Assembly (NCBI GenBank): GCA_965248675.1 | Contig: CBDFJZ010000008.1 | Coordinates: 1,533,256 to 1,597,255 of the forward strand | From: Dehalococcoidia bacterium | GTDB lineage: Bacteria > Chloroflexota > Dehalococcoidia > UBA2979 | Reading direction: 5' to 3' | DNA length: 64,000 nucleotides | In this document: piece by piece, positions 6,339 through 57,926 of the stretch | Numbering within the stretch: position 1 is the first letter of the stretch | Layout of the letters: each line of letters starts with the position of its first letter | Made by a program: the position numbers and the translations under genes | The notes under the pieces: generated by a model | Told to the model about the DNA's origin: nothing | The model's input: only the letters and a program-made list of their open reading frames with translations | The model's database searches: none

Positions 6339-6665
6339 ATGGCACACCCGACTGACACGAGCGACAGCACCTTTGATTCGGACGTGATCCAGTCAGATAT
6401 GCCAGTACTGGTGGACTTCTGGGCGCCGTGGTGTGGTCCGTGTCGCATGGTCGCGCCGGTCGTGGAGGAGCTCTCCGACGACTACGACGGCAAGGTGAAG
6501 TTCGTCAAACTGAATACCGATGAGAACCCGGTCGTGGCCGGCAAGTACGGGATCCGCTCGATCCCCACGCTGCTGATCTTCAAGGGCGGCGAAGCGGTCG
6601 GCCAGGTGATTGGCTTCCGCCCGAAGAGTGACCTGGCGAAGCACCTCGACGAGGTCGTCGCCTAA
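6339..6665 (+). CDS. trxA: Thioredoxin
   Basis: 108 aa. [15 protein letters not shown] active site and [13 protein letters not shown]. Confidence 0.95.
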
Positions 6666-6838: not shown

Positions 6839-7926
6839 GTGGAGCGCAAGCCTGTGGTGTCTGAATCTGAGCTTCTACTGCTCGACGCCGCGCTATCTGC
6901 GCACAGGTTGCAGCGGGTGGGGGAGCCCGAGCGGATCAGCGTCGGGACGCTCAACCGCAACTACCGCGTTCCAACCGACGACGGAGTGCTCTTCGCTCGA
7001 TGTCATCGCCCCGACCTCGAGGTCGACCGCATCCGACGGGAGCACGAGCTCGTGCGCTGGGTGGTCGATCACGATGTCCCGGCGACTCTGCCAGGTCACT
7101 TGCGAACGGCGAGACGGTGATCGAGGTAGGCGACAGTCGGTGGTCACTCTTTCCGTGGGTAGCGGGTCGCGTGCCCATTCGCGGTTCGATGACGCCTCGA
7201 GAGGCCGAGTCCATCGGCGCGGCGCATGGACTGACCCAACGGGCGCTGCTCGAGCATCCGGAATCGGCGGGGATCACCCTCCAGGGCTTGAGCGATCAAC
7301 TCGCCTGGGATACTGGTCGCTCCTTGGAAATGATCAAGCGAATCGAGCGTCAGGCGGCCCGCGCCCCCGAGCATCGAGCGGTGGTCGAGGTGCTCTCGTT
7401 TCAGCGTCAGCTACTGGAGAGCGGCGCGGCACGGTCCTTTTCCGAGTTGAGCGATCTTCCGTGCCAGCTGCTACACGGCGACTTTCACGATCAGCAGGTG
7501 CTGCTCGACGATGACGCCTCCGTGGTGGCGGTGGTCGACTGGGAGCTCATCCGACCGGCCGCCCGCGTGTGGGAGCTGATCCGTTCGCTGAGCTTCTCTC
7601 ACGTATTGGAAACCGATCTCCTGGAGCACTACGTCAGCGGCTTTCGGAGACACGTCGCGCTGACCGAGGACGAATGTCGCGGTGGGATCGAACTGTGGTG
7701 GCAGACGCGGCTGCACGGCACCTGGGTCTACGAGGCCTACTTCCTCGAGCAGAATGACCGGACCGGCCCGCTCTTCGAAGAGACGGTCGCCATCTCCGGC
7801 GCTTCGCGGATGAACGATGGCGAACCGAGATCGCGGATCGGCTCGCCGCCGCAAGCAAGCCGGCCACAACGTAGGTCGGCGCTCCAGCTCTGGATGGCAG
7901 CGGGTGGGCGAGCTCGCGCTAGATGA
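6839..7926 (+). pseudogene. Aminoglycoside/homoserine-kinase-type phosphotransferase (APH family), frameshifted
   Basis: N-terminal part is in ORF 6839..7120 (GTLNRNYRV...). The rest is in ORF 7000..7926 (LANGETVIEVGDSRWSLFPWV...LLHGDFHDQQVLLDDD..VVAVVDWE, the Brenner/DxD motifs). Shift near 7085..7105. A second shift near 7785 is possible (alternative tail HLRRFADERWRTEIADRLAAASKPATT*). Confidence 0.6.
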
Positions 7927-8470
7927 TGTTGCGCGGCTCGTTCGTCGCGCCGCCCCCACGCCGAGCGTCTGAGGGGCTCTCAGCCGAACCGTCTTCGGCC
8001 CCGTCGGCGCGGTGGCCCTTCTCCACGCGCCGCCCCTGCTTCTCCTCGAGGCGCATCAGCGCGCGGCCCTTGTCCGGGTGCGGATCCGCACGCATCCCGT
8101 AGGCCTCGCGGCCTTCGTGGTCCTCTGGCAGGTGTTCGGTGACGGGAAGACCTTCCTCGTCGCAGAACAGCAGTCAGTGGCAGTATTTCCAGCGCTGCAT
8201 CTCCTCGCAGGGGCAGATCCAGATCTTCTTTTCGATCTCCTCCTGCTTGTCCTCGAAGAACATGCACGGGCAGAGCGGCTTGCCAACCTCGTCGATGTTC
8301 TTGGCGAGGCCGATCACCAGGAAGTCGGTGATCTCTCGCTGCGGGTGGAGGTAGCTGCCGCTCTTGTTCGCGAAGTTCTCCACGAACTTCGTCATCTTCG
8401 CGATGTTCTCCGGCGAGGCCTGCGCGAGATCCTCCTCGGACGGGCGGTCGATGGTCATGAGCACTCCCAA
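7919..8470 (-). CDS. Ferredoxin:thioredoxin reductase catalytic-subunit homologue with in-frame TGA (candidate selenocysteine) at 8176..8174
   Basis: KMTKFVENFANKSGSYL...GKPLCPCMFFEDKQEEIEKKIWICPCEEMQRWKYCH[TGA]LLFCDEEG... The TGA sits where the CPC/CPC/CHC motif needs its last Cys. My codon-by-codon translation shows the frame open for 84 more codons to TAG 7921..7919. Confidence 0.7.
8141..8161 (-). other. SECIS-like hairpin 12 nt downstream of the UGA
   Basis: mRNA 5'-GACG-A-GGAA-GGUC-UUCC-CGUC-3': 4 bp, a bulged A, 4 bp, and a GGUC tetraloop. The loop starts about 21 nt after the UGA. Confidence 0.55.
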
Positions 8471-8574
8471 TCGACCCGGCAGCGAGGCCGGGCGTTCATC
8501 CTATCGGACCCTTCGCCCCTCGGGATGCGCGAGTGGCCTCGGACGCGCGCGCAGGGCGTCGGTAGAATCGCGCG

Positions 8575-8671
8575 GGGAGTGGATCGTGACCGGTGTTGCG
8601 CGCGGTCTTCAAAACCGTTGTGGGGCTACGTCGTAGTCCTGGGTGGGTTCGACCCCCACGCACTCCCGCCA
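8575..8671 (+). tRNA. selC: tRNA-Sec (anticodon UCA)
   Basis: 97 nt, folded by hand. Acceptor GGGAGUG(G)/(G)CACUCCC. D-arm CGUGAC-CGGU-GUUGCG (6-bp stem, 4-nt loop). Anticodon arm GCGGU-CUUCAAA-ACCGU. About 24-nt variable arm. T-arm GUGGG-UUCGACC-CCCAC. G73 and an encoded CCA. Confidence 0.85.
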
Positions 8672-8800
8672 CGAAGACGCCCGGTGAGGCGATTCCGCGC
8701 GTCGGATGTGCGTCCGAGCCACCGCTGCCTGCGACACAGACATCGCGAGTAGATCATCCCTGCGCGGCGACTCCACTTCCGAGCCTCGAAGGAGGAACAG

Positions 8801-8925
8801 GTGAGCGAGACAGAGCGACTCTTCGAGGGCGTGCGGATCGTCGAGTTCGGGCAATACGTCGCCGTCCGTACGCGGCAGAGCTATTCGCTCACGGCGGAGC
8901 GGACGTCGCGGTCCTCGGCGAGTAG
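8801..8925 (+). pseudogene. 5' remnant of a family III CoA-transferase gene
   Basis: GTG 8801 preceded by GAAGGAGG: MSETERLFEGVRIVEFGQYVAV. After a shift at CC 8866..8867 it reads PYAAELFAHGGADVAVLGE then TAG. Only about 41 codons remain of a gene that is normally about 400 codons. Confidence 0.5.
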
Positions 8926-9937: not shown

Positions 9938-11176
9938 CTACGAAACAACGCCCGCGCCCCGCAACTGCTCGAGGCGCTCGGCGCTGAATCCGAGGTCCGA
10001 CTCGAGAATCTCGTCGGAGTGTTCGCCCATCAGCGGCGCGCGCTGGATCGGCACGCGACTGCCGGACATCCGTGGTCCCCAGCCGAGCAGCCTGATCTCG
10101 CCGTGCTCGGGATGATCGAGCGTGTGCACGAACCCGCGCTCATTGAGGTGTTCGTCGCGGAACAGATCGCGCGTGTCGAAGTTCTTGCCGACGGGGACGC
10201 CGGCTTCACCGAGGATCCGCATCACCTCGTGCTTCGTGTGTCGCTGCGTCCACTCCGCCACGATCTCGTAGAGCGCATCGGCGTTGGTGATCCGCGCCTC
10301 GATCGTGTCGAAGCGCGGGTCCGAGGCGAGCTCCGGCTGCCCGATCGCCTGCGCCAGCGCCACCCACATGTGCGGCCGGGAGCACATCACGAACGCGTAG
10401 TCGTTCGGGCCGCGCGGCCCGAACGACTCCTGGGGCTCGGCGGGCCCGCACGGGTAGAGGTTGGTGGTCGCCGTACCGCCGTTGCCGTTGCGCTGTGCCA
10501 CGGCGTTGCCCCAGTCAGCGCCAATCGCCACCTGCGTGCGCATGTAGTAGGTCATCGCCTCCTGCATCGAGATCTCGATGTGTTGGCCCTCGCCGGTGAC
10601 CAACTTCTGGACGTAGGCGGCGGTGATCGCGAGCGCGAGCTGCACCCCCGTGCCGGCATCGCCGACCGTCGGGCCGGGGCGCATCGGTGGTCCGTCCGCA
10701 TCGCCGGTGACCGAGAATGCGCCCGCCGTCGCCTGGGCGACCATGTCGAAGCACTTGTAGTCGGAGTACGGCCCCGAGGTGCCGAACCCCTTCAGTTGCG
10801 CGTAGATGATGCTGGGATTCGCCTGCTTCATCGCGTCGTAGCCGATCTCCAGCCTCTCGACGACGCCCGGCCCGTAGTTCTCCACGAAGACGTCGTAGTG
10901 CGGCGCCATGTCGAGGATGATCTGTCGCCCCTCGGGCTGCTTGAGGTCGAGCACGATGCTCCGCTTGTTGCTGTTCCAGTTGATGAAGTACGGCGCGTTG
11001 CCCTCACCGCGGGCTCCACCGCGCCCTGGATCCCCAAACCCCGGCGGTTCCACCTTCACCACGTCCGCGCCGAGCCAGGCGAGCGCCTGCGTGCACGACG
11101 TCCCCGCCTCGTACTGCGTCATGTCGAGGACGCGCAGACCCTGGAGGGCTGTGTCCTGAGTCGGTTGGCTGGTCAT
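9938..11176 (-). CDS. Family III (CaiB/BaiF) CoA-transferase
   Basis: LQGLRVLDMTQYEAGTSCTQALAWLGADVVKVEPPGFGDPGR...VGDAGTG. The track ORF extends to 11257; Met at 11176 is preferred. Confidence 0.85.
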   Translation of the reverse strand: MTSQPTQDTALQGLRVLDMTQYEAGTSCTQALAWLGADVVKVEPPGFGDPGRGGARGEGNAPYFINWNSNKRSIVLDLKQPEGRQIILDMAPHYDVFVENYGPGVVERLEIGYDAMKQANPSIIYAQLKGFGTSGPYSDYKCFDMVAQATAGAFSVTGDADGPPMRPGPTVGDAGTGVQLALAITAAYVQKLVTGEGQHIEISMQEAMTYYMRTQVAIGADWGNAVAQRNGNGGTATTNLYPCGPAEPQESFGPRGPNDYAFVMCSRPHMWVALAQAIGQPELASDPRFDTIEARITNADALYEIVAEWTQRHTKHEVMRILGEAGVPVGKNFDTRDLFRDEHLNERGFVHTLDHPEHGEIRLLGWGPRMSGSRVPIQRAPLMGEHSDEILESDLGFSAERLEQLRGAGVVS

Positions 11177-11427
11177 CGCGCGTCTCCTCGGAGCGTCATC
11201 GGTTGTCGAGGCGGCGTCGGTGTTCGAGGGGGGGTCAGCGGAGCCGCTGCGGCTCACCTGTCCGCGGTCGAGAAGATCGAGCGCTCGCCCAGCGGGAGCC
11301 TAGCAGCACTCGGCCATGAGCCCCCGAGGTTCGATCCCTGCGCAGCCCGGCCACCAGCCTCGAGCGGTGAAGCGTCTAACCGCGGCGATCGCTCGCGGGC
11401 GCTGCCAGGCGGCCGCCGCGATGCGAG

Positions 11428-24103: not shown

Positions 24104-26527
24104 CTAGCCCGGCGGCAGGTCCCCCGTAACCCCTGCCTCTACGAGGTCGTCGTACTCCTCACGCGTCACGCCCAGCTCCTCGTGGAACACCTCGAAGCTG
24201 TGCTCGCCCATATACGGAGAGTGGCGCACCAGAGGGATCGCGCGGCCGGAGAACCGCCACGGCGCGACCGCCATCGTGTCGAGGCCCGCCTCCGGGTGCT
24301 CCACCTCCGCCATGAACCCGCGGGCGACGAGCTGCGGCAGCGGGTCCTCGAGGACCTCCGCCAGCCGCATCACCGGCGCCGCGCAGCATCCGAGGGCGTT
24401 CAGCGCCCCAGTTGCCTCGCCGGCGTCCTGCTCCGCGCACCAGGCCTCGAGGATCGCGTCCAGCTCGTCCTCATGCCGCTTGCGCGCCGCCGCGCTCGCG
24501 AAACGCTCGTCCGAAACCAGCTCCGGCATGCCGAGGTGACCCGCCAACGCGCGCCACGCCTCCTCGCTCTCGGCTGCCAGGGCGAGCCAGCGGCCGTCGC
24601 GCGCGGCGTAGATGCCGTGCGGCGCGACGGCCGGATGCCGGTTGCCCATCGGCCCGCGGGTGTTTCCGTTCGCCGACCACTCGAGCACCGCGTCCCCGAG
24701 TTGGGCAGTCATCGCCTCGATCATCGAGAGGTCGATGTATTGCCCCTCGCCGCTGCGCGCACGGTGGTGTACTGCCGCGAGGATCGTCGACGCCAGGTAC
24801 ATCCCCCCGACTGGGTCCGGGATCAGGCCGCCAGTGTTCGCCGCCGGCCCGCCCTCGTAGCCGTGCAGCGAGGAGAGACCGGACATCGGCTCGATCGAGC
24901 CCCCGTTCGCCGGGTACTGCGCGTAGGGCCCGGTCGCGCCGTACCCGGAGAGCGAGGCGAAGATCACATCCGGGCGCTGCTCGCGGAGCGTCTCGTAGGT
25001 CACGCCCCAGTGCGCCATCACGTGGGGGCTGAAGCTCTCGGCGAAGACGTCGAAGCGAGGCACCAGCCGCCAGAACAGTTCGGCCCCGCGCGGATCGCTC
25101 ATGTCGAGGGTGATCCCGCGCTTGTTGAGGTTGGTCCCGTTGAACAGCCCCATCACGTTCCAGGCGCGCTGGGTCCGCGCCGGATCGAGCATGTGCTCCG
25201 GCAGCGCCGCGTCGTACCCGCCGGAGTACGTGCGCCACACGTCCGGCCGCCGCCGCGCCTCGATCTGGACGACGTCGGCACCGAGGAGGGCGAGCAGCTC
25301 GGTCCCCAGCGGTCCCGACCACGCCTGCGTGAACGTCAGCACCCGCATCCCCGCCAGCGGCGCCTCGGCGGGAGCGGGCTTCGCCCCCGTCACCAGCGGC
25401 GCGGCCGCCGCGCGCGCGGGCGCCGGCTCACCCTCGCCATCCCCAAGGCCGGGCGCCGGCTGGTGCAGCCGCCACGGTGTCGCGCTCAGCGTCGCCGGGG
25501 CGCCCGGCATCCGCGCCGAGCGCCCATCGACCACCGTCTCCGCGAAGTACCCGCGCGCCTGGAGGTGCGGGTTCTCGAGGAGGTCGGCCGTGTCCTGCAA
25601 CACGCCGGACACGGAGCGGACCGTCGACAGCGCCTCGAACAGCTCCCAGCGCGGCATCTCCGCGACGCGTTCCGCGATCCGAGGCCGGATCGCGGTCAGG
25701 TGCTCGCGGCGTCGCACGGGATCGTCAAACCGGTCGTCGGCCAGCTCCGACAGGCCGAGCACGTGCATCGCGTCGGTCCAGAACAGACCCTGCCCGAACC
25801 CCGCCAGGATCGGGCCGTCGAGCGCCTCGAGGAACCCCGGGCCGTCGCGGTGGTGTACGTGTACCCGCGCCGTGTAGCCCTCGGGCCCCTCGTAGATCAC
25901 CGCCAGCGACCACGGCACCGAGCTGACGATCGCCGCCTCGAGCTCGCTCGCGTCCACGAGCGCGCCCTCGCCCGAGGTCGTGCGACGCACGACCGCGCCG
26001 GCGGCGCCGACGAAGGCGGCCACCCCGGCGATGTAGTCGAACTGGCGCGCTGGAAGCTGGAGTGGCGGCTCGCCCTCGAAGCCGCAGATGTCGGCCCAGC
26101 CGCTCAGCGCCGAGTGGGTGAGGCTATTCGCTGGCGCGCCGGCCAGCGGGCCGTCGAGGCCGAACGGCGTCACCGAGACGTGCACCGCGTCCGCCCGTTT
26201 CGCCTCGAGCGCGTAGCGCAGCGAGGGCGGCCATGGGACGGCCGTCGTCACGATCACGTCGGCCTCGGCAACGTGGCGCTCCAGCTCCGACGCGTCTCCT
26301 GGTGCGATCAACGATCGCTTGTTCGCGTTGACGTACGCGTGCACCAGCGAGCGATCGGGCCCCGGCACGTCGTCGAGGAACGGCGGTTCCGAGCGCAACG
26401 GATGGCCCTCGGGCGGTTCGAGCAGCAGCACGTCGGCCCCGTAGTCGCCGAACAGCCGCGCGCAGTAGGCGCCCGACAGGCGGTCCGAGAGATCCAGGAC
26501 GCGCAGGTCCTCGAAGGCGCCGGACAT
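24104..26527 (-). CDS. Tandem-fused double family III CoA-transferase (807 aa)
   Basis: Two CaiB/BaiF modules in one ORF: MSGAFEDLRVLDLSDRLSGAYCARLFGDYGADVLLLEPPEG... and ...LAGMRVLTFTQAWSGPLGTELLALLGADVVQIEARRRPDVWR...IPDPVGG. Start Met 26527 lies 12 nt after the upstream stop. The track ORF 24104..26890 overlaps the carboxylase. Confidence 0.8.
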   Translation of the reverse strand: MSGAFEDLRVLDLSDRLSGAYCARLFGDYGADVLLLEPPEGHPLRSEPPFLDDVPGPDRSLVHAYVNANKRSLIAPGDASELERHVAEADVIVTTAVPWPPSLRYALEAKRADAVHVSVTPFGLDGPLAGAPANSLTHSALSGWADICGFEGEPPLQLPARQFDYIAGVAAFVGAAGAVVRRTTSGEGALVDASELEAAIVSSVPWSLAVIYEGPEGYTARVHVHHRDGPGFLEALDGPILAGFGQGLFWTDAMHVLGLSELADDRFDDPVRRREHLTAIRPRIAERVAEMPRWELFEALSTVRSVSGVLQDTADLLENPHLQARGYFAETVVDGRSARMPGAPATLSATPWRLHQPAPGLGDGEGEPAPARAAAAPLVTGAKPAPAEAPLAGMRVLTFTQAWSGPLGTELLALLGADVVQIEARRRPDVWRTYSGGYDAALPEHMLDPARTQRAWNVMGLFNGTNLNKRGITLDMSDPRGAELFWRLVPRFDVFAESFSPHVMAHWGVTYETLREQRPDVIFASLSGYGATGPYAQYPANGGSIEPMSGLSSLHGYEGGPAANTGGLIPDPVGGMYLASTILAAVHHRARSGEGQYIDLSMIEAMTAQLGDAVLEWSANGNTRGPMGNRHPAVAPHGIYAARDGRWLALAAESEEAWRALAGHLGMPELVSDERFASAAARKRHEDELDAILEAWCAEQDAGEATGALNALGCCAAPVMRLAEVLEDPLPQLVARGFMAEVEHPEAGLDTMAVAPWRFSGRAIPLVRHSPYMGEHSFEVFHEELGVTREEYDDLVEAGVTGDLPPG

Positions 26528-26538
26528 CACCAGATTCC

Positions 26539-29500
26539 CTACCAGGTCGGCACGCTGGGCCGGCGGCCACGCCGGATCGGCTCGGACTGTGCCGCCAGCA
26601 GGCCCTGGGTGATCCAGTGCCGCGTCTCCACCGGATCGATGACGGCGTCGATCTTGAACGTCGATGCGGCGTTGAGCGCGCCGCCTCGCTCGTAGGCCTG
26701 CTCGACCAGCCGTTCGTACTCCGCGGCGCGCTCGCCGATGTCCTCGATCGCCGCGAGCTGATCGCGGTTCGACAGGCGCACCGCCGCCTCGAGGTTCATC
26801 CCGCCAAACTCCGCCGTCGGCCAGGCGACGGTGAACGAGGGCGCCCGCTCGTTCCCGAACAGGATCGTGTTCGAGCCGAGGCCGTAGCACTTGCGCAACA
26901 CCACACTGAACCGTGGCGTCTTCACGTTCCCCAGCGTCACGATCAGGTTGCTCGTGCGACGCACCAGCGCCGTCTTCTCCGCCTCAGGCCCGATCATCAT
27001 CCCCGGCGTGTCCACGAGCGTGAGCAGCGGAATGTTCCAGGAATCGCAGATTTTGGCGAAACGCGCCGCTTTGTCGGATCCGAAACTTTCGATCGACCCA
27101 CCCAGGTGCTCGTTGTTGTTCGCGATCACCCCGACCGGGCGGCCCTCGACGCGGACCAGCGCGGTCACCATGCCGTGCCCGTACTCCGGGCGCAGCTCCA
27201 GCACTGACCCGCTGTCCGCCATCAGCTCGATCACGCTCCGCACGTCGTACGCGCTGAGCCGGTTCTCCGGGATCGCGTGGCGCAACAACCGCTGGTCGGC
27301 GCATTCCCAACTTTTCACGGATCCCTGGAAGTACGACAGATACCGCTTCGCCACCCCAATCGCCTCAGCTTCGCTCTTGACGAGGATGTCGACCGTGCCC
27401 GCCGGCACCTGCTCCGACATCGGGCCGATCTCCTCGGGCAGGTAGACGCCCATCCCGCCGCCCTCGATCACCGCCGGCCCGCCCATGCCGATGTTGGCGT
27501 CCTCGGTCGCGATGATCACGTCGCAGATCCCGAGGATCGCGGCGTTGCCGGCGAAGCAGCGGCCGGCCGTCACGCCGATGATCGGCACCGTCCCGCTCAG
27601 GCGCGCCATCAGCTCCCAGGTGCGGAACACCATCCCCGGCATCCCGTCGGTGTCACCGGAGCGGCCGCCCGCGCCCTCGGCGATGAAGATCAGCGGCAGC
27701 GCGAACTCCCCGGCGACCTCCATCATCCGGTCGGTCTTCGCGTGGCCTCGGATGCCCTGCGTGCCGGCGAAGACAGTGTCGTCGTACGAGATCACCGCCG
27801 TCCGCGCCCGCTTCTCGTCGAACAGGGTGCCGTTCACCGCACCGATCCCGGAGACCAGCCCGTCGGCCGGCGTCTTGCGCACCAGCTCCTCCAGCGTGCT
27901 GCGCCGGCTCTGCCCGGCGATCACGAGGTCGCCGTACTCGATCCACGTCCCCTCATCCACGAGGTCGGCGAGGTTCTCTCGCACCGTCCGCCGGTTCTTC
28001 GCGTGGCGCCGTTCGACCGCCTCGGGCCGGTTCTCGTCGAGCAGGAACGGCCGCCGGTCGAGCACCGCCTGCAGATCGGGGCGGATGTAATCGATCGCCG
28101 CTGGGGCCTCGCCGGCCTCCGCGGGGCCGCCGACGTCCGCCTCCTCGACGAAGGCCAGCGGGTGATCCTCGTAGACCGTATCGCCGACCGCGACGGCGAG
28201 CCGGCGCACGATGCCGCCCAGCGGCGAGCGCACGAGGTGCTCCATCTTCAGCGCGTCCATGACGCAGACGACCTGCCCCTCGCGGACCGTGTCGCCCTCG
28301 GCGACGAGGATCTCGCGGATCGTGCCCTGGATCGGTGCCCGCAGCGGCGCGGTGTTCGGCGGTCCGATTGGCTCCGGCTTGTCGCCGCGGGCGCCCATCG
28401 TCACCACGTCGGCGGCGTCGCCGGAGCGGTAGAAGTCCAGCCCCGCCAGCGGGTCGAGCGGTCCTTCGGGAGCGCGCGCCGGCTCCGAGGCTGTCGCGGT
28501 CAGCAGCTCCGCCGCGTGCACGTCGATCCAGCGCGTGTCGATCCGCCCCGCCGCGAAGTCGTCGTGCGCGATCACCGCGCGTAGGAACTCTAGGTTAGTC
28601 TCGGCGCCGGCGATGCGGAACGCCCCGAGCGCCAACGCCAGGCGCCTGACGGCGCTCCCGGAGTCCGCCGACGTCGAATGCGCGATCACCTTCGCCAGCA
28701 GCGAGTCGAACGCGGGGCTCGAGGCGTAGCCGGCGTATCCGTTCGTGTCGACGCGCGTGCCCGGCCCCGAGGGCGGCAGAAACACCGTCAGCGTCCCACC
28801 GGCCGGGCGCACGCCGCCGTCTGCCTCCATCCGTTCGAGATTCACGCGCGCCTGGATCGCGTACCCATGCGGCGCCGGCGTCTCATCTAGCCCAAGCGCG
28901 CCCAGCGTCTCGCTTCCGGCGATGCGCAGCTGCGCCTGGACGAGGTCGACGCCGGTCACCTCCTCGGTGACCGTGTGTTCGACCTGCAGCCGCGCGTTCG
29001 CCTCGATGAAGACGCAGTCGCCGCCGTCGAGGTCAACGAGGAACTCGAACGTGCCGAGGCCCTCGTAGCCGGCCGCTTCGGCGAGCCGCACGGCATACGC
29101 GGTGATCGCCTCGCGCACCTCGGCGCTCAGCCACGGACTGGGCGCGATCTCGATCAGCTTCTGGTGACGCCGTTGCACGCTGCACTCGCGCTCGCCAAGG
29201 TGACGCACCGCCCTCGCGCCGTCGGCGATGATCTGTACCTCCACGTGCCGTGCCCGCTCGATCAGCCGCTCCGCGTAGACGCTGTCGTTACCGAACGCGT
29301 TCAGCGCCTCGGACTGGCAGCGCGCCAGCGCCTCCTCGATCGCCGCCGCGTCGGTCACCACGCGCATGCCGCGCCCGCCGCCACCGCCGACCGCCTTGAG
29401 GATCATCGCGGCGCCGTCGCCCAGCCCCGCGAAGAAGGTACGTGCCTCGTCGAGGCCGACCGCGCCATCGCTCCCCGGCAGCACCGGCACGCCGTGCTCC

Positions 29501-33916: not shown

Positions 33917-36322
33917 ATGGATCTGTTCAGCGGCGTGCGGGTGCTCGAGGTCTCCGAGACGCCGGCGGCTGCGTTCGTCGGCAAGCTGTTTTCGCGCTGG
34001 GGCGCCGAGGTCACAGCGCTGCGCGACCCGTCAACCAACCTCGCCGACTCCGGTTCGTGCGTCTCCGAGGAAGCGCTCTCGGCGTTCCTCGACGGTGGCA
34101 AGCGCCGATCCGAACTCCCCGAGGACAGCGGCGACCGCACCACGACTGTCGCGCGACTGGCGGCGGCCAGCGACATGGTCGTCACCGACGCAGCCCCCGA
34201 CGTCTTCGAGGCGTGGAGGCCGGCGATCGAGGCGACCGATTCGCCTCCGCGGGTGCTGACGAGCATCACTCCGTTCGGGCTGAGCGGCCCTTACCGCGAC
34301 TGGCAGGCGACTCCCACGACGCTCCTCGCGCTCGGCGGCTACTCCTACCTCATGGGCGAGGCCGACGGTCCTCCGCTCACACTGCCCGGGCTGTATCCCG
34401 ACTACCAGGCGGCCCTGATCGCCTACAGCGCGACGACCGCGTCATTCCTCGAGGCGTCGGACGAGATGGAGGTCCTCGAGCTCAGCATCTTCGAGGCGCT
34501 CGTGTCGCTGCATCAGTACTCGACTGTGCAGTGGACCTACAGCCGGCAGGTGCGGCAGAGGAACGGCAACCGCTGGTCGGGGATCCACCCCAATTGTCTG
34601 TTGCCCGTGAAGGACGGCTGGCTCGAGCTCTGCATCGTCGGGAACTTCTGGGAGGCGTTCACGCTGATGATCGGTCGCCCCGAACTCCAGCAGGACGACC
34701 GCTTCTCGACGCCGATCGCGCGTGTCGAGCACGCCGACGAGCTGGACGAGATCGTCGTCCCGATCCTCGCTGAGCGCACGAAGCGTGAGTGGCTGGTCGC
34801 AGGCCAGGAGACCTTCCGCGTCCCGGTCGGGCACGCCGCCACCCTCGAGGAGGTGCTGGACGATCCTCAGCTCGGCGTGCGCGAGTACTGGTCCGGAGTC
34901 CACCAGCCGGACGGGCGCGCGGTGCGGATCGGCCGCTCCCCGTTCCGTATCGACGGCGCACTTCCCGAGGAGCAACCCGTCGTGTCCGAGGGCGCCTGGG
35001 CGCTCGAGGCGCCCTCGGACGCCCCGCGCGTCTCGCCGCCACCGCGCGGATCGAGGCAACCGCCACTCGCGACGCCTCCGCCGGGCGGCCCCCTGAACGG
35101 CATCCGCGTCCTCGATCTGACCCGCGTCTGGGCCGGCCCGCTCGCCGGCCGCATCCTCGCCGACCTCGGCGCCGAGGTGATCAAGGTCGAGGCACCGATG
35201 GGGCGCGGTCCTGCACGCATCCCGCCCGGCTCCGGTCGCCGCATGCTCGCGTCGGGCACGAACGAACGTCCGTGGAATCAGCAAAGCTCGTTCAACAAGC
35301 TGAACCGCAACCGCTACGGCCTCGCGATCGATCTGAAGAGCGAGCAGGGCCGCGATCTCTTCTTGCGGCTCGCAGCGGAGACCGACGTCGTCCTCGAAAA
35401 CTTCAGCGCGCGGGCGATGGACCGCCTCAATCTCGGCTACGACCGCCTGCGCCAGGTCAGCCCATCCCTGATCTACGCCGCGATGCCCGGCTACGGCCGC
35501 AGCGGGCCCTACCGTGACTACGTCGCCTACGGCCCGAGCATCGAGCCGATGACCGGCCTCACGATGCTGATGGGCTACGGCGACGAGGTGCCCCGCGTGA
35601 CCTCGAAGGCGATTCCGGACGCGATCGCCGGCACCCAGGGCGCCGCCGCGGTGTTGACCGCCCTCCAGCACCGATCGCGCACGGGCGAAGGCTGTTTCGT
35701 CGACCTCTCGCAGCACGAGGCGGCGGTCGAGCTGCTGGGCGAGTACTTCGCCGAGTTCGAGCTCAGCGGCGCCGTGCCTCCCGTGGTCGGGAACGGACAC
35801 GTGCGCTGGGCGCCGCACGGCGTCTATCCGTGCAGCACCGAGGACGAGTGGATCGCCGTCACTGTCCGGGACGACCCGGAATGGCGGGCGCTCATCGATC
35901 TGGCGGATCGCGGCTGGGACGAGGACTCGCGGTTCGCCACGCTCGATGCTCGGCGCGAGCACCTCGAGGAGCTCGATCGCGAGATCGCCGGCTGGACGGC
36001 ACGGCTCGATCGCGCGGAGCTGATGCGCCAGCTCCAATCGCGGGCGATCCCGGCCGGCGCGGTCCTCTCCGCGCCGCAGATGCTCGAGGACGGCCATCTC
36101 CAAGAGCGCGACTTCTTCGTCACGCTGGAGCAGCCGGACGTAGGCGCGATCGACTACCCGGGCACGCCGCTGCGCTCGCGCCGCCATCCTCGGGCGGGCT
36201 GGCGTCCAGCGCCGACGCTGGGTCAGGACAACGCCGCCGTCCTCGACTTGATTGGCGTTGCCGCCACGGAGCTGAACGAACTGATGGAGCGCGGCGTGAT
36301 CGCCGACCGCCCACCGGCGTGA
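33917..36322 (+). CDS. Tandem-fused double family III CoA-transferase (801 aa)
   Basis: A degenerate first module (MDLFSGVRVLEVSETPAAAFVGKLFSRWGAEVTAL...) plus a canonical second module (LNGIRVLDLTRVWAGPLAGRILADLGAEVIKVEAPMGRGPAR...IPDAIAG). Confidence 0.8.
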   Translation: MDLFSGVRVLEVSETPAAAFVGKLFSRWGAEVTALRDPSTNLADSGSCVSEEALSAFLDGGKRRSELPEDSGDRTTTVARLAAASDMVVTDAAPDVFEAWRPAIEATDSPPRVLTSITPFGLSGPYRDWQATPTTLLALGGYSYLMGEADGPPLTLPGLYPDYQAALIAYSATTASFLEASDEMEVLELSIFEALVSLHQYSTVQWTYSRQVRQRNGNRWSGIHPNCLLPVKDGWLELCIVGNFWEAFTLMIGRPELQQDDRFSTPIARVEHADELDEIVVPILAERTKREWLVAGQETFRVPVGHAATLEEVLDDPQLGVREYWSGVHQPDGRAVRIGRSPFRIDGALPEEQPVVSEGAWALEAPSDAPRVSPPPRGSRQPPLATPPPGGPLNGIRVLDLTRVWAGPLAGRILADLGAEVIKVEAPMGRGPARIPPGSGRRMLASGTNERPWNQQSSFNKLNRNRYGLAIDLKSEQGRDLFLRLAAETDVVLENFSARAMDRLNLGYDRLRQVSPSLIYAAMPGYGRSGPYRDYVAYGPSIEPMTGLTMLMGYGDEVPRVTSKAIPDAIAGTQGAAAVLTALQHRSRTGEGCFVDLSQHEAAVELLGEYFAEFELSGAVPPVVGNGHVRWAPHGVYPCSTEDEWIAVTVRDDPEWRALIDLADRGWDEDSRFATLDARREHLEELDREIAGWTARLDRAELMRQLQSRAIPAGAVLSAPQMLEDGHLQERDFFVTLEQPDVGAIDYPGTPLRSRRHPRAGWRPAPTLGQDNAAVLDLIGVAATELNELMERGVIADRPPA

Positions 36323-36357
36323 AGGCGAGCGCAGCAGCGCTAGACAGGAGATCCGCC

Positions 36358-37614
36358 ATGCCGGAGCCACTCGAGGGCATCAAAGTCGTGGAGCTGGCGC
36401 GCGCGCTGCAGGGCCCCGTCGCCGGACAGTACCTCGCCGATATGGGCGCCGACGTCATCAAGGTCGAACCCGCGCTCGGCGACGCGAACCGCCGTGTGCG
36501 CAGCCCCTTCATCGATCCGACCGAAGGCGGATTCGGTACCCAGTTCGTCAGCGCCAATCGAGGCAAGCGCTCGCTCTGGCTCGACCTCCGCCGCGAGCAG
36601 TCGATCGATATCGTCCGCCAGCTCGTCGACGGTACCGACGTCTTCCTGAGCAACTATCTGGAGCCGTCCCTGCTCGCGATGAAGCTCGGCTACGACGACC
36701 TGCGCGAGCGCAACCCGGACCTCGTCTACGCGTTGGTCAACGGCTACGGCCCGGTCGGCCCGGACGCGGCGAAGCGCATGCTCGATGGCTCCGCCGCCGC
36801 TCGCGGAGGCCTCTACAACGTCACCGGCCCAAGCGACGGCGGCCCGATGATTCCTGGTTCCACGATCGCCGATACCGCCGGCGCGATGCAGCTCGCGCTC
36901 GGGATCACGACCGCCCTCACGGCGCGGGCGCTACACGGCGGCAGTCAACGCGTCGATACCTCCGGCCTCGGCGCGCAGCTCTGGCTGCAGAAGTGGGAGC
37001 TCGACACCGTCTCACTGACCGGCGATCGCCTCTCCCGCCAGGGCCCGCATAGCGCCAACATCCCGGGCACCTACGGCCTCTACGAGACCTCGGACGGTGC
37101 GATCATGATCGCTTACATCGCCAACGAGGCGGACTGGATCGAGTTCTGCCGATTCGCCGGCCTCGAGGAGCTGATCGCAGATGAGCGGTTCGACACCGGT
37201 CTGAAGCGGGCAGGCTGGGCGCCCGATGGCGGAAAGAGCGAGACTTCGTACGAGATCCGCCCCTACCTCGAGCGCGCCTTCAAGGCGAAGAGCACCGCAG
37301 AGTGGACCGAGTTCCTCGGTGGGCTGACGAAGGTCGTCTGGGACGTCGTCCAGGACTACGAGCAGGTGCTTGGCGATCCCCAGGCGATCGCCAACGGCTA
37401 CTTCGTCGAGCAGGACATCCCCACCGTCGGCCAACGCCGCCTCGTCGGAAACACCGTGCACATCAATGGCGACACCGGACGGGCGAAGCCGCGGCCACCC
37501 GCCCTCGGTGAGCACAACGAGGAGATCCTCGCCTCGCTCGGCTACGACGCCGCCGCGATCGAGGAGATCACCGCCGCCGCCCGCGCAGCTATGAAGCAGC
37601 GGCTCGGCGCTTGA
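36358..37614 (+). CDS. Family III CoA-transferase
   Basis: AGGAG RBS then ATG 36358: MPEPLEGIKVVELARALQGPVAGQYLADMGADVIKVEPALGDANRR...IADTAGA. The track ORF 35830..37614 has a spurious 5' extension. Confidence 0.85.
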   Translation: MPEPLEGIKVVELARALQGPVAGQYLADMGADVIKVEPALGDANRRVRSPFIDPTEGGFGTQFVSANRGKRSLWLDLRREQSIDIVRQLVDGTDVFLSNYLEPSLLAMKLGYDDLRERNPDLVYALVNGYGPVGPDAAKRMLDGSAAARGGLYNVTGPSDGGPMIPGSTIADTAGAMQLALGITTALTARALHGGSQRVDTSGLGAQLWLQKWELDTVSLTGDRLSRQGPHSANIPGTYGLYETSDGAIMIAYIANEADWIEFCRFAGLEELIADERFDTGLKRAGWAPDGGKSETSYEIRPYLERAFKAKSTAEWTEFLGGLTKVVWDVVQDYEQVLGDPQAIANGYFVEQDIPTVGQRRLVGNTVHINGDTGRAKPRPPALGEHNEEILASLGYDAAAIEEITAAARAAMKQRLGA

Positions 37615-39311: not shown

Positions 39312-40872
39312 TCACGGTCGATAGCTCGGGCCGGCGTTTGGGCCGAGTTGGGTCTTGATCACGTTCTGCGCCATGTCCGCGAACTCGCAGATGATCGCGC
39401 GCGTGTCTCGAGGATCGATCAAGTCGAGGCCGCTCGCCTCGGCGGTCCGGAACGGTGAGGACAGCGCCTGGAACTCCGCCTCCAGCTCGAGCCGTTTCGC
39501 CTCCGGATCGGGCGCCGCCTCGATCACGCGGCGGAACGCCGCGGACGTTCCGCCCTCGATGTGCATTGAGCCCCAATGTCCCGAGAGCCACGCGTAGCGC
39601 CGGTACAGGTGTGGCCCCGGCCGGTACTGCAGGCTGCCCGCCAGTCCGTACGACTGGCGGCAGATCACCGAGATCCACGGCATCTTGCTCTGCGCGATCG
39701 CATACACGAGGCGCGCCCCGGCCCGCTCGATCCCCACCTTTTCCGACTCGAGCCCGACCATGAACCCCGGATCGTCCATCAGCACCACCATCGGCAAGTG
39801 GAACGTGTCGCAGAGCTGCACGAGGCGGCTCGACTTCTCCGCCGCCGCCACGTCCATCGAGCCGCCTCGGTGGTTCGGGTTGTTGAGCATCACCCCCACC
39901 GGGTACCCGCTCGCCCGCGCCAGTCCGATGATTCTCGACGTCCCGTACTCCGGCGACACCTCGAAGAACGACCCCTCGTCGAACACCCCCCCTCGAGGAT
40001 CACGCGCGGGTTGTACGGCTGCCGCTTGTCCCGAGGGATCAGCGACAACAGCCGTTCGTCGCGACGCGCCGGATCGTCCGACTGATCGCCCTGCGGCGGC
40101 ATCTCCCAGACGTTGTCCGGCATGTAGCTCAGGAACTGCTTCACCTGGGCGATTGCGTCCGCCTCGTCCTCGGCGGCGTTGTCGACACCCCGCTGATCTG
40201 AGCGTGGATCTGGGCACCCCCGAGGTCGTCCTTGTCGATGTCGTAGCCGAGCGCCGCCTTCACCACCGGCGGTCCGCCGGGGAACACCTGTCCGGCCCCC
40301 TTCGCGATCACGCTGAAATGGCTGAGCGGGGGAATCGGCGCCAGCCCGCCGGCGGCCGACCCCAGCACGGCCGTCGCTACCGGCGCGATGTTCAAGATCG
40401 CGCAGATCGACTCGAACTGGGCGCCGTCGGGGATGTAGGTGCGACCGATCTCCGCGAATTCAGTCACGCTGCCACCCGCGCCATCGAGCAGGTTCACCGT
40501 CGGCAGCCGCAGCTCCATGGGGCCGGGATGGCCGTGCCCCATATCGACGCCAGCGCTATGGGCGCCGGCCGAGCCGCCCCGGATCGTGAAGTCCTGCCCG
40601 GCCACGTAGATGCGGCGTCCGCCGACCTTCGCGATCCCTCGCACCCCCGCCGACGGCTTCACGTCGAGGAGCGCTCCGTCGTCGTCGTACGTGGCGCTGC
40701 CCCGCAGCTTGCCTATTTGCTCGAACGAACCGGCGTCGACCAGCAGTTCGATCCGCTCGCGGATGTTGAGCTTTCCTTGCCGCCGCTGACGTTCGAGGCC
40801 TTCCGGTCCCCCCATTTGCTCGGCGAACGCGTACCGGCGATTCAGCTCATCGACGTCGGGCTGCCAGGTCAT
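39312..40872 (-). pseudogene. Acyl-CoA carboxylase carboxyltransferase (PccB/AccD-like), two frameshifts
   Basis: Three frame segments. (1) 40872->~40190: ...VAGQDFTIRGGSAG...GGAQIHAQISGV. (2) VDNAAEDEADAIAQVKQFLSYMPDNVWE...PRVILEG. (3) VFDEGSFFEVSPEYG...NNPNHRGGSMD...MDDPGFMVG. Shifts at about 40184..40191 and in the C7 run 39986..39992. Confidence 0.8.
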
Positions 40873-54295: not shown

Positions 54296-54392
54296 TTTGG
54301 GCTGAGACACCCTGTCGGTGGCTGTGCCGATGGGATTCAGGGTAAGCCGGTACGGCTGCCGGCGGCCCAGGGGCACAGGAGGCCAAACCACC

Positions 54393-55575
54393 ATGGGAAT
54401 GTTCATCAACACGAATGTGTCGGCACTGAACGCTCAGCGAAACCTGAGCGCGACGGGCGCCAAGATGAGCAAGGCGCTGGAGCAGCTCTCCAGTGGTTTG
54501 CTCATCAACCGGGCGGCCGATGACGCCGCCGGTCTGGCGATCAGCGAGAAGATGCGGGCCCAGATCCGCGGTATGCAGATGGGTCTGCGCAACGCCCAGG
54601 ACGGCGTTTCGATGATTCAGACCGCTGAGGGTGCGCTCAACGAGACGCACGCGATTCTCCAACGCATGCGCGAGCTGACGGTGCAGGCCGGTTCGACGAT
54701 CCTGTCGACCTCGGACCGTACCTCGGTCGGCGAAGAGCTGCTGACGCTGCGGAACGAGCTGGACAACATCGCCACTCGCTCGCGATTCAACGGTCTGAAC
54801 CTGCTGACCGGTGCCCTGTCGGTGACGTTGGCGACGGTCTTCGTGGACTCGGCCGGCGTTGTCGGTGCGGCGTCGATCGCCCTCGATGTCTCGGGGGGCG
54901 GATGCCGGGACGACGTACGCGATCGCCAACGGCGCTGGCGCCGACGTGACGATCACGAACAACACCACGAACGTGGCGCAGACGATCACGCTAGCGGCCC
55001 AGGGCGGCACCGTTGGCGACATTCAGGTGGCGAACTTCGACGCGCTGGGAATCAAGCTGACGCTGACGCAGAACATCGCTGGTGCGCTGACGGGCACCGA
55101 GATGGCGGTCGACATCGCGGCGCAGACGCCGATCACGACGGACGCCGGCAGCGGAGCGGCGACGTTCCGTGTTGGCTCTGAGATCACGGACAACGTGACG
55201 GTGTCGTTCAACGACCTGCAGTCGACCGCGCTCGGTGGTGCTGGTACGGAGCTGAACACGCTGGTGGCGGACAACACCGCGGTGTCGACGGTCGCGCTGG
55301 CGGACGCGTTGCTCGGTGCGCTGGACACGGCGATCAGCCAGGTCGGCACTCAGCGCGCGAAGCTGGGTGCGGCTCAGAACCAGATGGAGTCGGCGATCGC
55401 ATCGGTCGCGGTCTCGGTCGAGAACCTGAGCGCGTCCGAGTCACGAATTCGTGACGCGGACATCGCGATGGTGTCCTCGGAGCTGGTGACGCGTCAGATC
55501 ATGCAGCAGGCGGGCGTTTCGGTGTTGGCGCAGGCCAACCAGGCTCCGCAGAGCGTGCTCGCGCTGCTGCAGTAG
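54393..55575 (+). pseudogene. fliC: Flagellin paralogue 1, one frameshift in a G6 run
   Basis: MGMFINTNVSALNAQRNLSATGAKMSKALEQLSSGLLINRAADDAAGLAISEKM... The C-terminal half (ADAGTTYAIANGAG...RIRDADIAMVSSELVTRQIMQQAGVSVLAQANQAPQSVLALLQ) is in ORF 54859..55575. Shift at GGGGGG 54893..54898. Confidence 0.85.
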
Positions 55576-56750: not shown

Positions 56751-57926
56751 ATGGGAATGTTCATCAACACGAACATTGCCGCGATCAACGCTCAGCGAAA
56801 CCTGAACGTGACGGGCGGCAAAATGAGCAAGGCGCTGGAGCAGCTCTCGAGTGGTTTGCGCATCAACCGAGCGGCGGACGACGCGGCCGGCCTGGCGATC
56901 AGCGAGAAGATGCGCTCGCAGATACGCGGCATGAAGATGGGTCTGCGCAACGCCCAGGACGGCGTTTCGATGATCCAGACCGCCGAGGGTGCGCTCAACG
57001 AGACGCACGCGATCCTGCAGCGCATGCGCGAGCTGACGGTGCAGGCCGGGTCGACGATCCTCTCGACCTCGGACCGCACGTCGGTGGGTGAGGAGCTGCT
57101 GACGCTGCGCAACGAGCTGGACAACATCGCGATCCGCTCTCGCTTCAACGGTCTCAACCTGCTGACCGGCGCGCTTTCGGTGCAGACGGTGGCGGCGATC
57201 CCCGACATCGCCGGTGCCAGCACCGGTGTCGTCGCGGTCGGGATCGACGTCTCAGGCGGCGAAGCCGCCGTGACGTACAACGTGACCGACGGTGGCGCCG
57301 GCGCGGTGACGGTCACGAACGCGACCACGAGCGTGGCGCAGACGATCACCGCGGCGGCGATGGCCACGGCGAGCGGGGTGCAGACGCTGAACTTCGACGC
57401 GTTGGGCGTAAAGCTGACGCTGACGCACGACGCGACGACGAACGCCGTCACGGCGGCGGAGCTGAGCGCCGGCGTGGCTTCCGCGATCGCGACGACGGGC
57501 CAGGGGAACGCGACGTTCCGCGTCGGCTCCGAGGTGACGGACAACGTGACGGTCGGGTTCAACGATCTGCGTTCGTCAGCGCTCGGCGGTGCCGGTACCA
57601 CGCTGGACACACTCGTCGCCGACAACCAGTCGGTCGCGACGACGACCCTGGCGGACGCGCTGCTGGGGGCGTTGGACACGGCGATCGGCCAGGTCAGCAC
57701 CCAGCGTGCGAAGCTGGGTGCGGCGCAAAACCAGATGGAGTCGGCGATCGCATCGGTCGCGGTCTCGGTCGAGAACCTGAGCGCGTCCGAGTCACGAATT
57801 CGTGACGCGGACATCGCGATGGTGTCCTCGGAGCTGGTGACGCGGCAGATCATGCAGCAGGCGGGCGTTTCGGTGCTGGCGCGGGCGAACTCGTCGCCGC
57901 AGGCGGTGCTGGCGCTGCTCCAGTAG
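56751..57926 (+). CDS. fliC: Flagellin paralogue 2 (intact)
   Basis: 391 aa. MGMFINTNIAAINAQRNLNVTGGKMSKALEQLSSGLRINRAADDAAGLAISEKM...LSASESRIRDADIAMVSSELVTRQIMQQAGVSVLARANSSPQAVLALLQ. Confidence 0.95.
   Translation: MGMFINTNIAAINAQRNLNVTGGKMSKALEQLSSGLRINRAADDAAGLAISEKMRSQIRGMKMGLRNAQDGVSMIQTAEGALNETHAILQRMRELTVQAGSTILSTSDRTSVGEELLTLRNELDNIAIRSRFNGLNLLTGALSVQTVAAIPDIAGASTGVVAVGIDVSGGEAAVTYNVTDGGAGAVTVTNATTSVAQTITAAAMATASGVQTLNFDALGVKLTLTHDATTNAVTAAELSAGVASAIATTGQGNATFRVGSEVTDNVTVGFNDLRSSALGGAGTTLDTLVADNQSVATTTLADALLGALDTAIGQVSTQRAKLGAAQNQMESAIASVAVSVENLSASESRIRDADIAMVSSELVTRQIMQQAGVSVLARANSSPQAVLALLQ

Follow-up and report, generated by a model that had tools for sequence, protein, structure and literature searches.

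A predicted selenocysteine-containing ferredoxin:thioredoxin reductase homologue and its candidate SECIS element in a Dehalococcoidia genome

Ferredoxin:thioredoxin reductase (FTR) is the textbook example of disulfide cleavage by an iron-sulfur cluster, which binds one of the two sulfurs. In the catalytic subunit (FTRc) from Synechocystis, residues Cys55, Cys74, Cys76, and Cys85 bind the cluster, and Cys57 and Cys87 form the active disulfide. Cys57 attacks thioredoxin, and His86 assists; in the one-electron intermediate, Cys87 is bound to the unique iron, and it is this residue that later resolves the mixed disulfide. The gene described here lies on the minus strand (8458..7919) of a 64-kb stretch of Dehalococcoidia contig CBDFJZ010000008.1, hereafter the window. 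Very probably, judging by its sequence and those of its relatives, it encodes a single-subunit FTRc homologue in which an in-frame UGA, decoded as selenocysteine (Sec) through a selenocysteine insertion sequence (SECIS), stands in place of the last of these cysteines. An earlier sequence-only reading of the window had proposed such a selenoprotein, with the UGA at the redox-active Cys, a SECIS downstream, and a tRNA-Sec gene adjacent; every comparative test run supports it.

Selenoproteins have been recognized in this family before. Zhang and Gladyshev (2008) placed FTRc among the bacterial selenoprotein families, with two Global Ocean Sampling (GOS) reads (PMC2398784). The GOS proteins follow the pattern CPU...CPC...CIU over ~104 residues (Dataset S2). 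Inventories from 2022 and 2026 list "Ferredoxin-thioredoxin reductase, CxU"; the 2026 entry refers to NCBIfam model NF041072 and carries the value 2, taken to be a count of Sec residues. The model bears the name "FtrB family double-selenoprotein". The earlier suggestion that FTRc might be a new selenoprotein family is therefore incorrect, and the present gene extends knowledge rather than bringing a surprise.

The window protein resembles the FtrB double-selenoproteins in several respects: membership of the FTRc family; a predicted Sec after the last cluster ligand (CxU); and a bacterial SECIS just downstream. Their source, marine metagenomes, is listed as a further likeness. The differences are also clear. 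FtrB double-selenoproteins have two Sec residues, no His before the second Sec, another motif spacing, and no C-terminal extension, and are 31% identical to the window protein, which has TGC (not TGA) in its first motif. Against the NF041072 cut-off of 160 bits, the score of the window protein is 50.2 bits, and those of the Cys homologues P0001 and P0069 are 44-49 bits. A search of the literature on Sec-FTRc in SAR202 and Dehalococcoidia and on FtrB selenoproteins found no paper on a single-Sec form, which BSepDB may already list. The window gene adds a new member, and arguably a second form, to a family in which selenoproteins were already known. A broader proposal is put forward tentatively: that this is an uncatalogued second FTRc form with a single Sec at the resolving position (CHU) and the attacking Cys kept; widespread in Dehalococcoidia and SAR202-type bacteria; gained or lost several times, as a rough tree suggests; with each Sec lineage building its SECIS from the same few codons; and repeatedly linked, in divergent orientation, to the tRNA-Sec gene selC.

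The cyanobacterial and chloroplast enzymes (1DJ7, 2PU9, and 7BZK) share with the window protein the Pfam family, the CPC-X16-CPC-X8-CHC motif, and a thioredoxin gene nearby. The window protein differs in having Sec for Cys87, a C-terminal extension of ~45 residues that cyanobacterial and plant FTRc are without, and a probably disordered tail. Its host, to judge from gene content and closest relatives, is a non-photosynthetic Dehalococcoidia-type bacterium, and no domain resembling the FTR variable subunit (FTRv) was found among the ~40 window open reading frames (ORFs) scanned or pre-annotated. Speculatively, the extension may substitute for a variable subunit.

The gene, its product and the proposed chemistry

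The coding sequence was defined by translation and by the Pfam match to PF02943. It runs from ATG 8458..8456 to TAG 7921..7919, and would specify 179 residues including Sec95. Translation of 8470..7919 (minus strand) gives LCPCMFFEDKQEEIEKKIWICPCEEMQRWKYCH, the TGA at 8176..8174, and then LLFCDEEGLPVTEHLPEDHEGREAYG, with the TAG 84 codons beyond; the gene contains this single in-frame TGA only. The sequence-only reading had drawn the ORF from 8470 to 8174, and its frame and TGA stand, whereas the TTG at 8470 is probably not the start. The likelier start is ATG 8458..8456, which direct reading of the sequence places 5 nt behind a Shine-Dalgarno-like GGGAG (8464..8468, minus strand). The start codon is polymorphic: ATG in the window, and GTG in L001, L002, L004, and L005, which are other assemblies of the population.

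The same reading had identified the ORF as an FTRc homologue, with the TGA at the last Cys of the canonical motif and an open frame with G/C-rich third positions beyond it. Each of these points holds. With C put in place of U, the window protein matches Pfam FeThRed_B (PF02943) with 82.7 bits (cut-off 22) across residues 19-103, and matches 7BZK_A, 1DJ7_A, and 2PU9_A in the PDB at E = 2e-20. The full motif reads C63-P-C65, X16, C82-P-C84, X8, C93-H94-[UGA95]; it retains the His and five of the six Cys, with the UGA at the remaining Cys position. The first CPC (Cys63-Pro-Cys65; 8264..8272, minus strand) is encoded by TGC-CCG-TGC, and all three of its columns are invariant. The second (Cys82-Pro-Cys84; 8207..8215, minus strand) has invariant C82 and C84, predicted [4Fe-4S] ligands by the roles assigned in published FTR structures. 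C93-H94-U95 (8174..8182, minus strand) would provide a cluster ligand, the catalytic His, and Sec; C93 and H94 are invariant. The column that holds the UGA (8174..8176, minus strand) is Cys in every aligned Cys-form homologue (17/17 and 59/59), and reads TGY in 92 Cys-form DNA sequences. In the alignment to 1DJ7, Sec95 corresponds to Synechocystis Cys87, and Cys65 to Cys57. The fraction of G or C at third codon positions (GC3) is 0.94 upstream of the TGA and 0.84 downstream.

Two segments follow Sec95. The first is the conserved extension (8039..8173, minus strand), which begins LLFCDEEGLPVTEHLPEDHEGREAYG and ends DPHPDKGRAL, with many invariant columns; the family consensus over these ~45 residues is LLFxxEEGLPITEHLPEDHEGREIYG..DPxPDKGRAL. 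The second is a poorly conserved tail rich in Gly, Ala, Arg, Asp, and Glu (7922..8038, minus strand; residues ~141-179), which varies in length and sequence among homologues and is probably disordered. The nearest relatives of the window protein are Cys-form Dehalococcoidia proteins of 140-160 residues (such as P0001, P0002, and P0033), 65-71% identical over the whole conserved length including the extension. They differ in having TGC or TGT for TGA, Val at position +4 from it, and no conserved hairpin. An AlphaFold2 model is available for P0002, the 70%-identical Cys homologue, with a predicted local distance difference test (pLDDT) score of 86.7. Its core superposes on 7BZK_A and 1DJ7_A at 1.4-1.5 A over ~89 residues; its extension has pLDDT ~90 or more and no PDB counterpart, and its equivalent tail has pLDDT <50.

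Sec-forms are widespread. A scan for KYCH-TGA-LLF, with one genome per GTDB species, listed at least 120 loci, at least 94 of which are true FTRc genes with the full CPC...CxC...CH motif directly before the TGA. Their hosts are mostly metagenome-assembled genomes (MAGs) from Dehalococcoidia and other Chloroflexota, including a SAR202 bin, together with two Entotheonella genomes; for several of the listed MAGs, the isolate names hint at a sponge origin. In a rough neighbor-joining tree, 62 Sec-forms group in one clade and 18 in another, with 3 more close to the latter; four others stand as isolated branches among Cys-forms. This suggests several switches between Cys and Sec. Two MAGs each have two separate KYCH-TGA-LLF loci: L020 and L064 in CAMDAY01, and L083 and L103 in JADLFF01. 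The L083 locus is truncated at its beginning, where the upstream FTRc motif would be expected. Such pairs suggest either paralogous Sec-FTRc genes or mixed bins.

How might such an enzyme be made and work? UGA 8176..8174 would not be a stop; instead, the hairpin 12 nt downstream would act as a bacterial SECIS, recruiting SelB with Sec-tRNA(Sec), the tRNA being supplied by selC, 117 bp upstream. Sec would be inserted as residue 95, and translation would go on for 84 codons to the TAG. The catalytic cycle envisaged takes as its basis the FTR mechanism that Dai et al. reportedly published in 2007 (as cited in PMC2398784). Cys63, Cys82, Cys84, and Cys93 would hold the [4Fe-4S] cluster, and a Cys65-Sec95 selenenylsulfide would lie beside it, where Synechocystis FTR has the Cys57-Cys87 disulfide. 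On arrival of the first electron from ferredoxin, this bond would open, and Sec95 would bind the unique cluster iron in an Fe-Se intermediate. Cys65 would then attack the disulfide of thioredoxin (encoded by the nearby trxA) or of another disulfide substrate. With the second electron, the Sec95 selenolate would resolve the mixed disulfide. Because Sec95 aligns with Cys87 of the published mechanism, Sec is placed at the cluster-interacting, resolving position; by analogy, we infer that it would offer a better nucleophile and a better leaving group there.

If this is correct, the one-electron intermediate would have an Fe-Se bond to the [4Fe-4S] cluster. A natural variant with selenium at that position only, along with close Cys-form relatives, would lend itself to probing how FTR works, including the Fe-Se intermediate, the potential at which the selenenylsulfide is reduced, and how fast the resolving step proceeds.

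Thioredoxin is favored as the substrate, an assignment drawn from gene linkage in the window and in 19 of the 94 listed loci. The trxA gene (6339..6665, plus strand; WCGPC; Pfam PF00085, E = 8e-34) lies 1.25 kb from the end of the FTRc gene, in keeping with the neighbor claimed earlier at 1.5 kb, and encodes the probable substrate; in the 19 loci, the Sec codon and a thioredoxin gene are no more than 2 kb apart. Less likely, the protein is a selenoprotein but acts as a ferredoxin-dependent reductase of some other disulfide or small molecule, like the FDR-type enzymes of archaea and deltaproteobacteria. The FDR of Methanosarcina acetivorans (4TPU) and the glutaredoxin-FDR fusion of Desulfotalea (7PWE) are FTRc-like iron-sulfur disulfide reductases from non-photosynthetic organisms; they have no variable subunit, and are named disulfide reductases. 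The apparent lack of a variable subunit, the family-specific C-terminal extension, and a nearby trxA in only 19 of the 94 listed loci would all suit this alternative. However, the core is closest to true FTRc (E = 2e-20; modelled fold at 1.4 A), whereas the FDR-type proteins are distant (E = 7e-8 and 3e-3; TM-score ~0.4), include rubredoxin or glutaredoxin fusions, and are not reported to contain Sec. Moreover, the window protein has the full CPC/CPC/CH[C/U] motif with its catalytic His, and the conserved redox neighbor, where there is one, is thioredoxin.

A candidate SECIS just past the UGA

In the bacterial SECIS (bSECIS) model, a stem-loop lies shortly 3' of the UGA, with a G in its apical loop. 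The hairpin core that follows the window UGA (8141..8161, minus strand) reads GACG-A-GGAA-GGUC-UUCC-CGUC: two 4-bp segments separated by a bulged A and capped by a GGUC tetraloop (8152..8149). The stem begins 12 nt past the UGA, and the loop 21 nt past it. The hairpin proposed earlier appears within the minimum free energy (MFE) fold, and by itself folds with -8.0 kcal/mol. A possible lower stem (UGUUC.G. /.C.GAACA; 8133..8169, minus strand) also appears in the MFE fold, and is less well supported.

The SECIS of Escherichia coli fdhF is the obvious comparison. Its 46-nt sequence was found exactly in the fdhF gene of 5419 of 5426 E. coli genomes, and bears out what the sequence-only reading had stated of it: a bulged U, a GGUC loop, and a similar distance from the UGA (11 nt). 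Both hairpins lie directly 3' of the UGA inside the coding sequence, and both have a GGUC tetraloop and one bulged 5' base. The window stem has 4+4 bp and a bulged A, whereas that of fdhF has 3+3 bp and a bulged U; the distances from UGA to stem and to loop are 12 and 21 nt in the window, and 11 and 18 nt in fdhF. The second Sec-FTRc clade is alike in a further respect, in that it has the 10-mer GCAGGUCUGC in common with fdhF.

Conservation among the Sec-forms is extensive. A hairpin occupies the same codons in almost every one of them, and in the main Sec clade takes the form GAYG-A-GGAA-GGUC-UUCC-CRUC. Compensatory changes convert GACG/CGUC to GAUG/CAUC, and GGAA/UUCC to GGCA/UGCC. Other variants include UCGGAA/UUCCGA, CCGGAA/UUCCGG, GGCA-GGUC-UGCC, GGGC-GGUCU-GCCC, and GGGGA-CGGGC-UCCCC, and isolated Sec lineages have further versions. 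For a set of 71 distinct sequences, the proposed structure has 83.7% of its cells paired, compared with 30-54% when the partners are slid. Double changes occur in 37 cells, compared with 12 for shuffled data, and none of 500 shuffles gave as high a value. In the lower stem, pairs 10-42, 11-41, and 12-40 are kept in 69-70 of the 71 sequences, pair 14-38 in 48, and pair 9-43 in 19.

A very unlikely explanation is that the hairpin arises simply because the gene encodes the conserved peptide D-E-E-G-L-P-V/I-T, and that the UGA is read through by other means. The peptide is conserved in the Cys-forms too; part of the complementarity (GAR GGN CTN CCN) is inherent in its codons; and the local fold is not significant by z-score. 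The Cys-forms themselves provide the control, with 92 distinct genes collected by a metagenome scan for KYCH-TGY-LLF. The Gly codon is GGT in 80 of 86 Sec-forms, compared with 15 of 92 Cys-forms; GGTC stands at the loop position in 78 and 7, respectively; and the full in-register stem is present in 70 Sec-forms and at most one Cys-form. The mean MFE of nt 12-39 is -8.2 kcal/mol for Sec-forms and -5.0 kcal/mol for Cys-forms (p = 1e-16). The contrast persists where the peptide is identical. Among genes encoding E-G-L-P, the codons GAA, GGT, and CTT are used in 63, 64, and 63 of 65 Sec-forms, compared with 9, 4, and 4 of 21 Cys-forms, and the upper stem is complete in 63/65 and 1/21, respectively. 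All three codons end in A or T, within a gene that otherwise has 94% G/C at third positions. The constraint on the RNA thus exists only where the UGA is present. In addition, independent Sec lineages that encode GDGLP, EAGLP, EGGLP, or PEGLP have their own hairpin at the same place. By comparative criteria, then, the predicted hairpin is a SECIS.

Some observations count against the SECIS reading. The 76-nt hairpin region folds no better than shuffled sequences (z = -0.63), so the hairpin is not to be judged from the window alone, and its significance comes from comparison with other sequences. Rfam returned no SECIS family over 8050..8250, either at the gathering threshold or at E up to 10, but only chance matches to miRNAs and small RNAs. 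The covariation is moderate, with double changes at 4 pairs. Finally, the codon contrast retains some phylogenetic dependence, since Sec- and Cys-forms fall partly into different clades. The matched Sec and Cys sets allow a clean view of a SECIS built from synonymous codons.

Codon 99 (8162-8164), at position +4 from the UGA, deserves separate mention. It encodes Cys (U-L-L-F-C) in 60 of 86 Sec-forms and 1 of 92 Cys-forms, nearly all of which have Val. Constraint on the RNA is unsupported as the cause: both TGC and TGT are used, and GUG for Val would pair better in the lower stem. A role as resolving thiol is likewise unsupported. This Cys may have been acquired once, at the root of the main Sec clade.

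One Cys-form, L129 from metagenome contig Ga0209777_10089378, is 67% identical to the window protein and reads CLLFCNAEGLPIT. It keeps the +4 Cys of the Sec clade, and has GGC CTC in place of GGT CTT. In sequence, it looks like a reversal from Sec to Cys with a decaying SECIS.

The UGA, the downstream frame and the decoding machinery

The sequence-only reading had proposed a search among relatives for the TGA, the downstream frame, and the hairpin. All are present in at least 94 further FTRc loci, with the hairpin in almost every Sec-form. In 92 of the 94 listed loci, the sequence extends to the next stop, and the frame stays open for 44-176 codons after the TGA; the other two end before it. 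These genes are diverse: Sec-form cores have a median identity of 60% in ungapped comparison, and differ at up to ~70% of aligned positions. Over the first 45 codons past the UGA, the window and its closest relatives (L123, L041, L124, and others) differ by 8-18 synonymous and 3-6 non-synonymous changes, and the 60 codons before the UGA have a similar pattern. Variability at codon positions 1, 2, and 3 in 89 Sec-forms is 0.15, 0.12, and 0.32 downstream, and 0.19, 0.15, and 0.33 upstream. Because both the third-position variability and the synonymous excess resemble those of the upstream part, the region 3' of the UGA is translated in frame.

Nearer relatives agree. The identical 94-residue truncated product has been called in five other independent ENA assemblies, there is one further contig, recorded at more than 1 Mb, and all copies have the TGA. 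The copies in this population differ in the start codon (ATG or GTG) and in a synonymous CTG>TTG change at codon 110, which lies 3' of the UGA. The population also has structural variation between the FTRc gene and trxA, in the equivalent of window 7000-7926, where the window has an APH-family gene (7000..7926). In L002 (11400-12649), the APH-family gene is broken by an insertion sequence element (HTH_Tnp_1 + rve), and in L004 (10793-11245) an HNH/N6_N4 methylase ORF stands in its place.

Could the UGA be a true stop, with the gene a pseudogene or the source of a 94-residue truncated protein only, and the downstream frame a decaying relic? This is highly improbable. Gene callers do annotate a 94-residue product and a separate 58-residue ORF from Met122; TGA is a normal stop elsewhere in the window; and because Sec insertion always falls short of full efficiency, some truncated protein would probably be made regardless. 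Yet the TGA is kept in those further loci despite the divergence of their cores; purifying selection acts on the 45 downstream codons as it does on the upstream part; the truncated protein would lose one of the two redox-active residues; and the RNA hairpin is conserved in TGA forms only. Weaker still, and readily dismissed, is an error of sequencing or assembly for TGC: split genes in related assemblies do hint at indel errors, but the same TGA occurs in six assemblies of the population and in at least 94 loci of other genomes, obtained with different technologies, a base substitution is not typical of long reads, and the SECIS codon bias goes along with the TGA.

Reassignment of TGA as a sense codon is excluded, because TGA is the normal stop of 14 of 33 confident window ORFs. 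A scan of the window for other ORFs split by TGA with high GC3 on both sides returned only the FTRc gene and three unconvincing frames. The frame at 9743 was rejected as a selenoprotein, being antisense to real genes; the other two frames were judged by eye.

The selenoprotein reading also draws on the neighboring tRNA-Sec gene, selC (8575..8671, plus strand; anticodon TCA), which was identified by ARAGORN and by Rfam RF01852 (70.8 bits; cut-off 47). Oriented divergently to the FTRc gene across the intergenic region 8459-8574, it lies 117 bp from the ATG, close to the ~100 bp first claimed. Among the 94 listed related loci of 8 kb, 12 contain a tRNA-Sec gene, always upstream of and divergent from FTRc, at 383-4676 nt from the UGA (L013, L018, L020, L088, L115, L120, L019, L042, L075, L102, L123, and L125). 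The first six of these have their tRNA start 383-406 nt from the UGA, a distance similar to that in the window. Genomes with linked tRNA-Sec span 44-76% GC, and chance linkage is estimated at ~0.3% per locus for a single-copy gene in a 3-Mb genome.

Sec decoding in this organism is plausible. BSepDB lists Dehalococcoidia MAGs with 46-49 selenoprotein genes (PMC13326102). Since the single-Sec form is widespread and repeatedly linked to selC, FTRc may be among the selenoproteins that help to keep the Sec trait in this class.

Other points pull in the opposite direction. No selA, selB, or selD was found among the ~40 ORFs scanned or pre-annotated in the 64-kb window, and Pfam searches found no sel protein genes among 10 large ORFs beside tRNA-Sec in related loci; the ORFs scanned in the two sets encode CoA-transferases, a sulfatase, monooxygenases, MFS transporters, Maf/TrmA, and similar proteins. 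The structural model belongs to the homologue P0002, not to the window protein. The substrate and the electron donor are assigned by inference, with trxA near in about a fifth of the listed loci, and FTRc homologues of non-phototrophs include disulfide reductases with a non-thioredoxin substrate (4TPU and 7PWE).

Gene annotation and the rest of the window

Public gene calls split the gene. In L001, the calls at 10001-10285 and 10364-10540 correspond to window 8458-8174 and ~8095-7919, giving a 94-residue FeThRed_B product and a separate 58-residue ORF in the same frame, from Met122. This is the misannotation expected of selenoproteins. The same holds for 94 or more other loci, nearly all of them from uncultured MAGs; a whole subfamily of redox enzymes is thus systematically mis-annotated.

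A consensus scan of 7700..8900 for promoters and terminators gave nothing useful. Elsewhere in the window, two overlapping minus-strand ORFs (39312-40217 and 40141-40872) encode the C-terminal and N-terminal halves of one carboxyl-transferase domain; the split is a frameshift, either real or an assembly indel. An ORF for a flagellin C-terminal domain (54859-55575, plus strand) overlaps the ORF at 54318-55181, and an intact flagellin gene follows at 56751-57926 (plus strand); the region 54318-55575 may be a second, split flagellin gene.

Four genes belong to CoA-transferase family III, two of them with double domains: 24104-26890 (minus strand), 33917-36322 (plus strand), 35830-37614 (plus strand), and 9938-11257 (minus strand). 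The window also contains a sulfatase and an FGE-sulfatase, a luciferase-like monooxygenase, and genes of acyl-CoA metabolism, and has 68.6% GC. This gene content and GC are typical of SAR202-type Dehalococcoidia.

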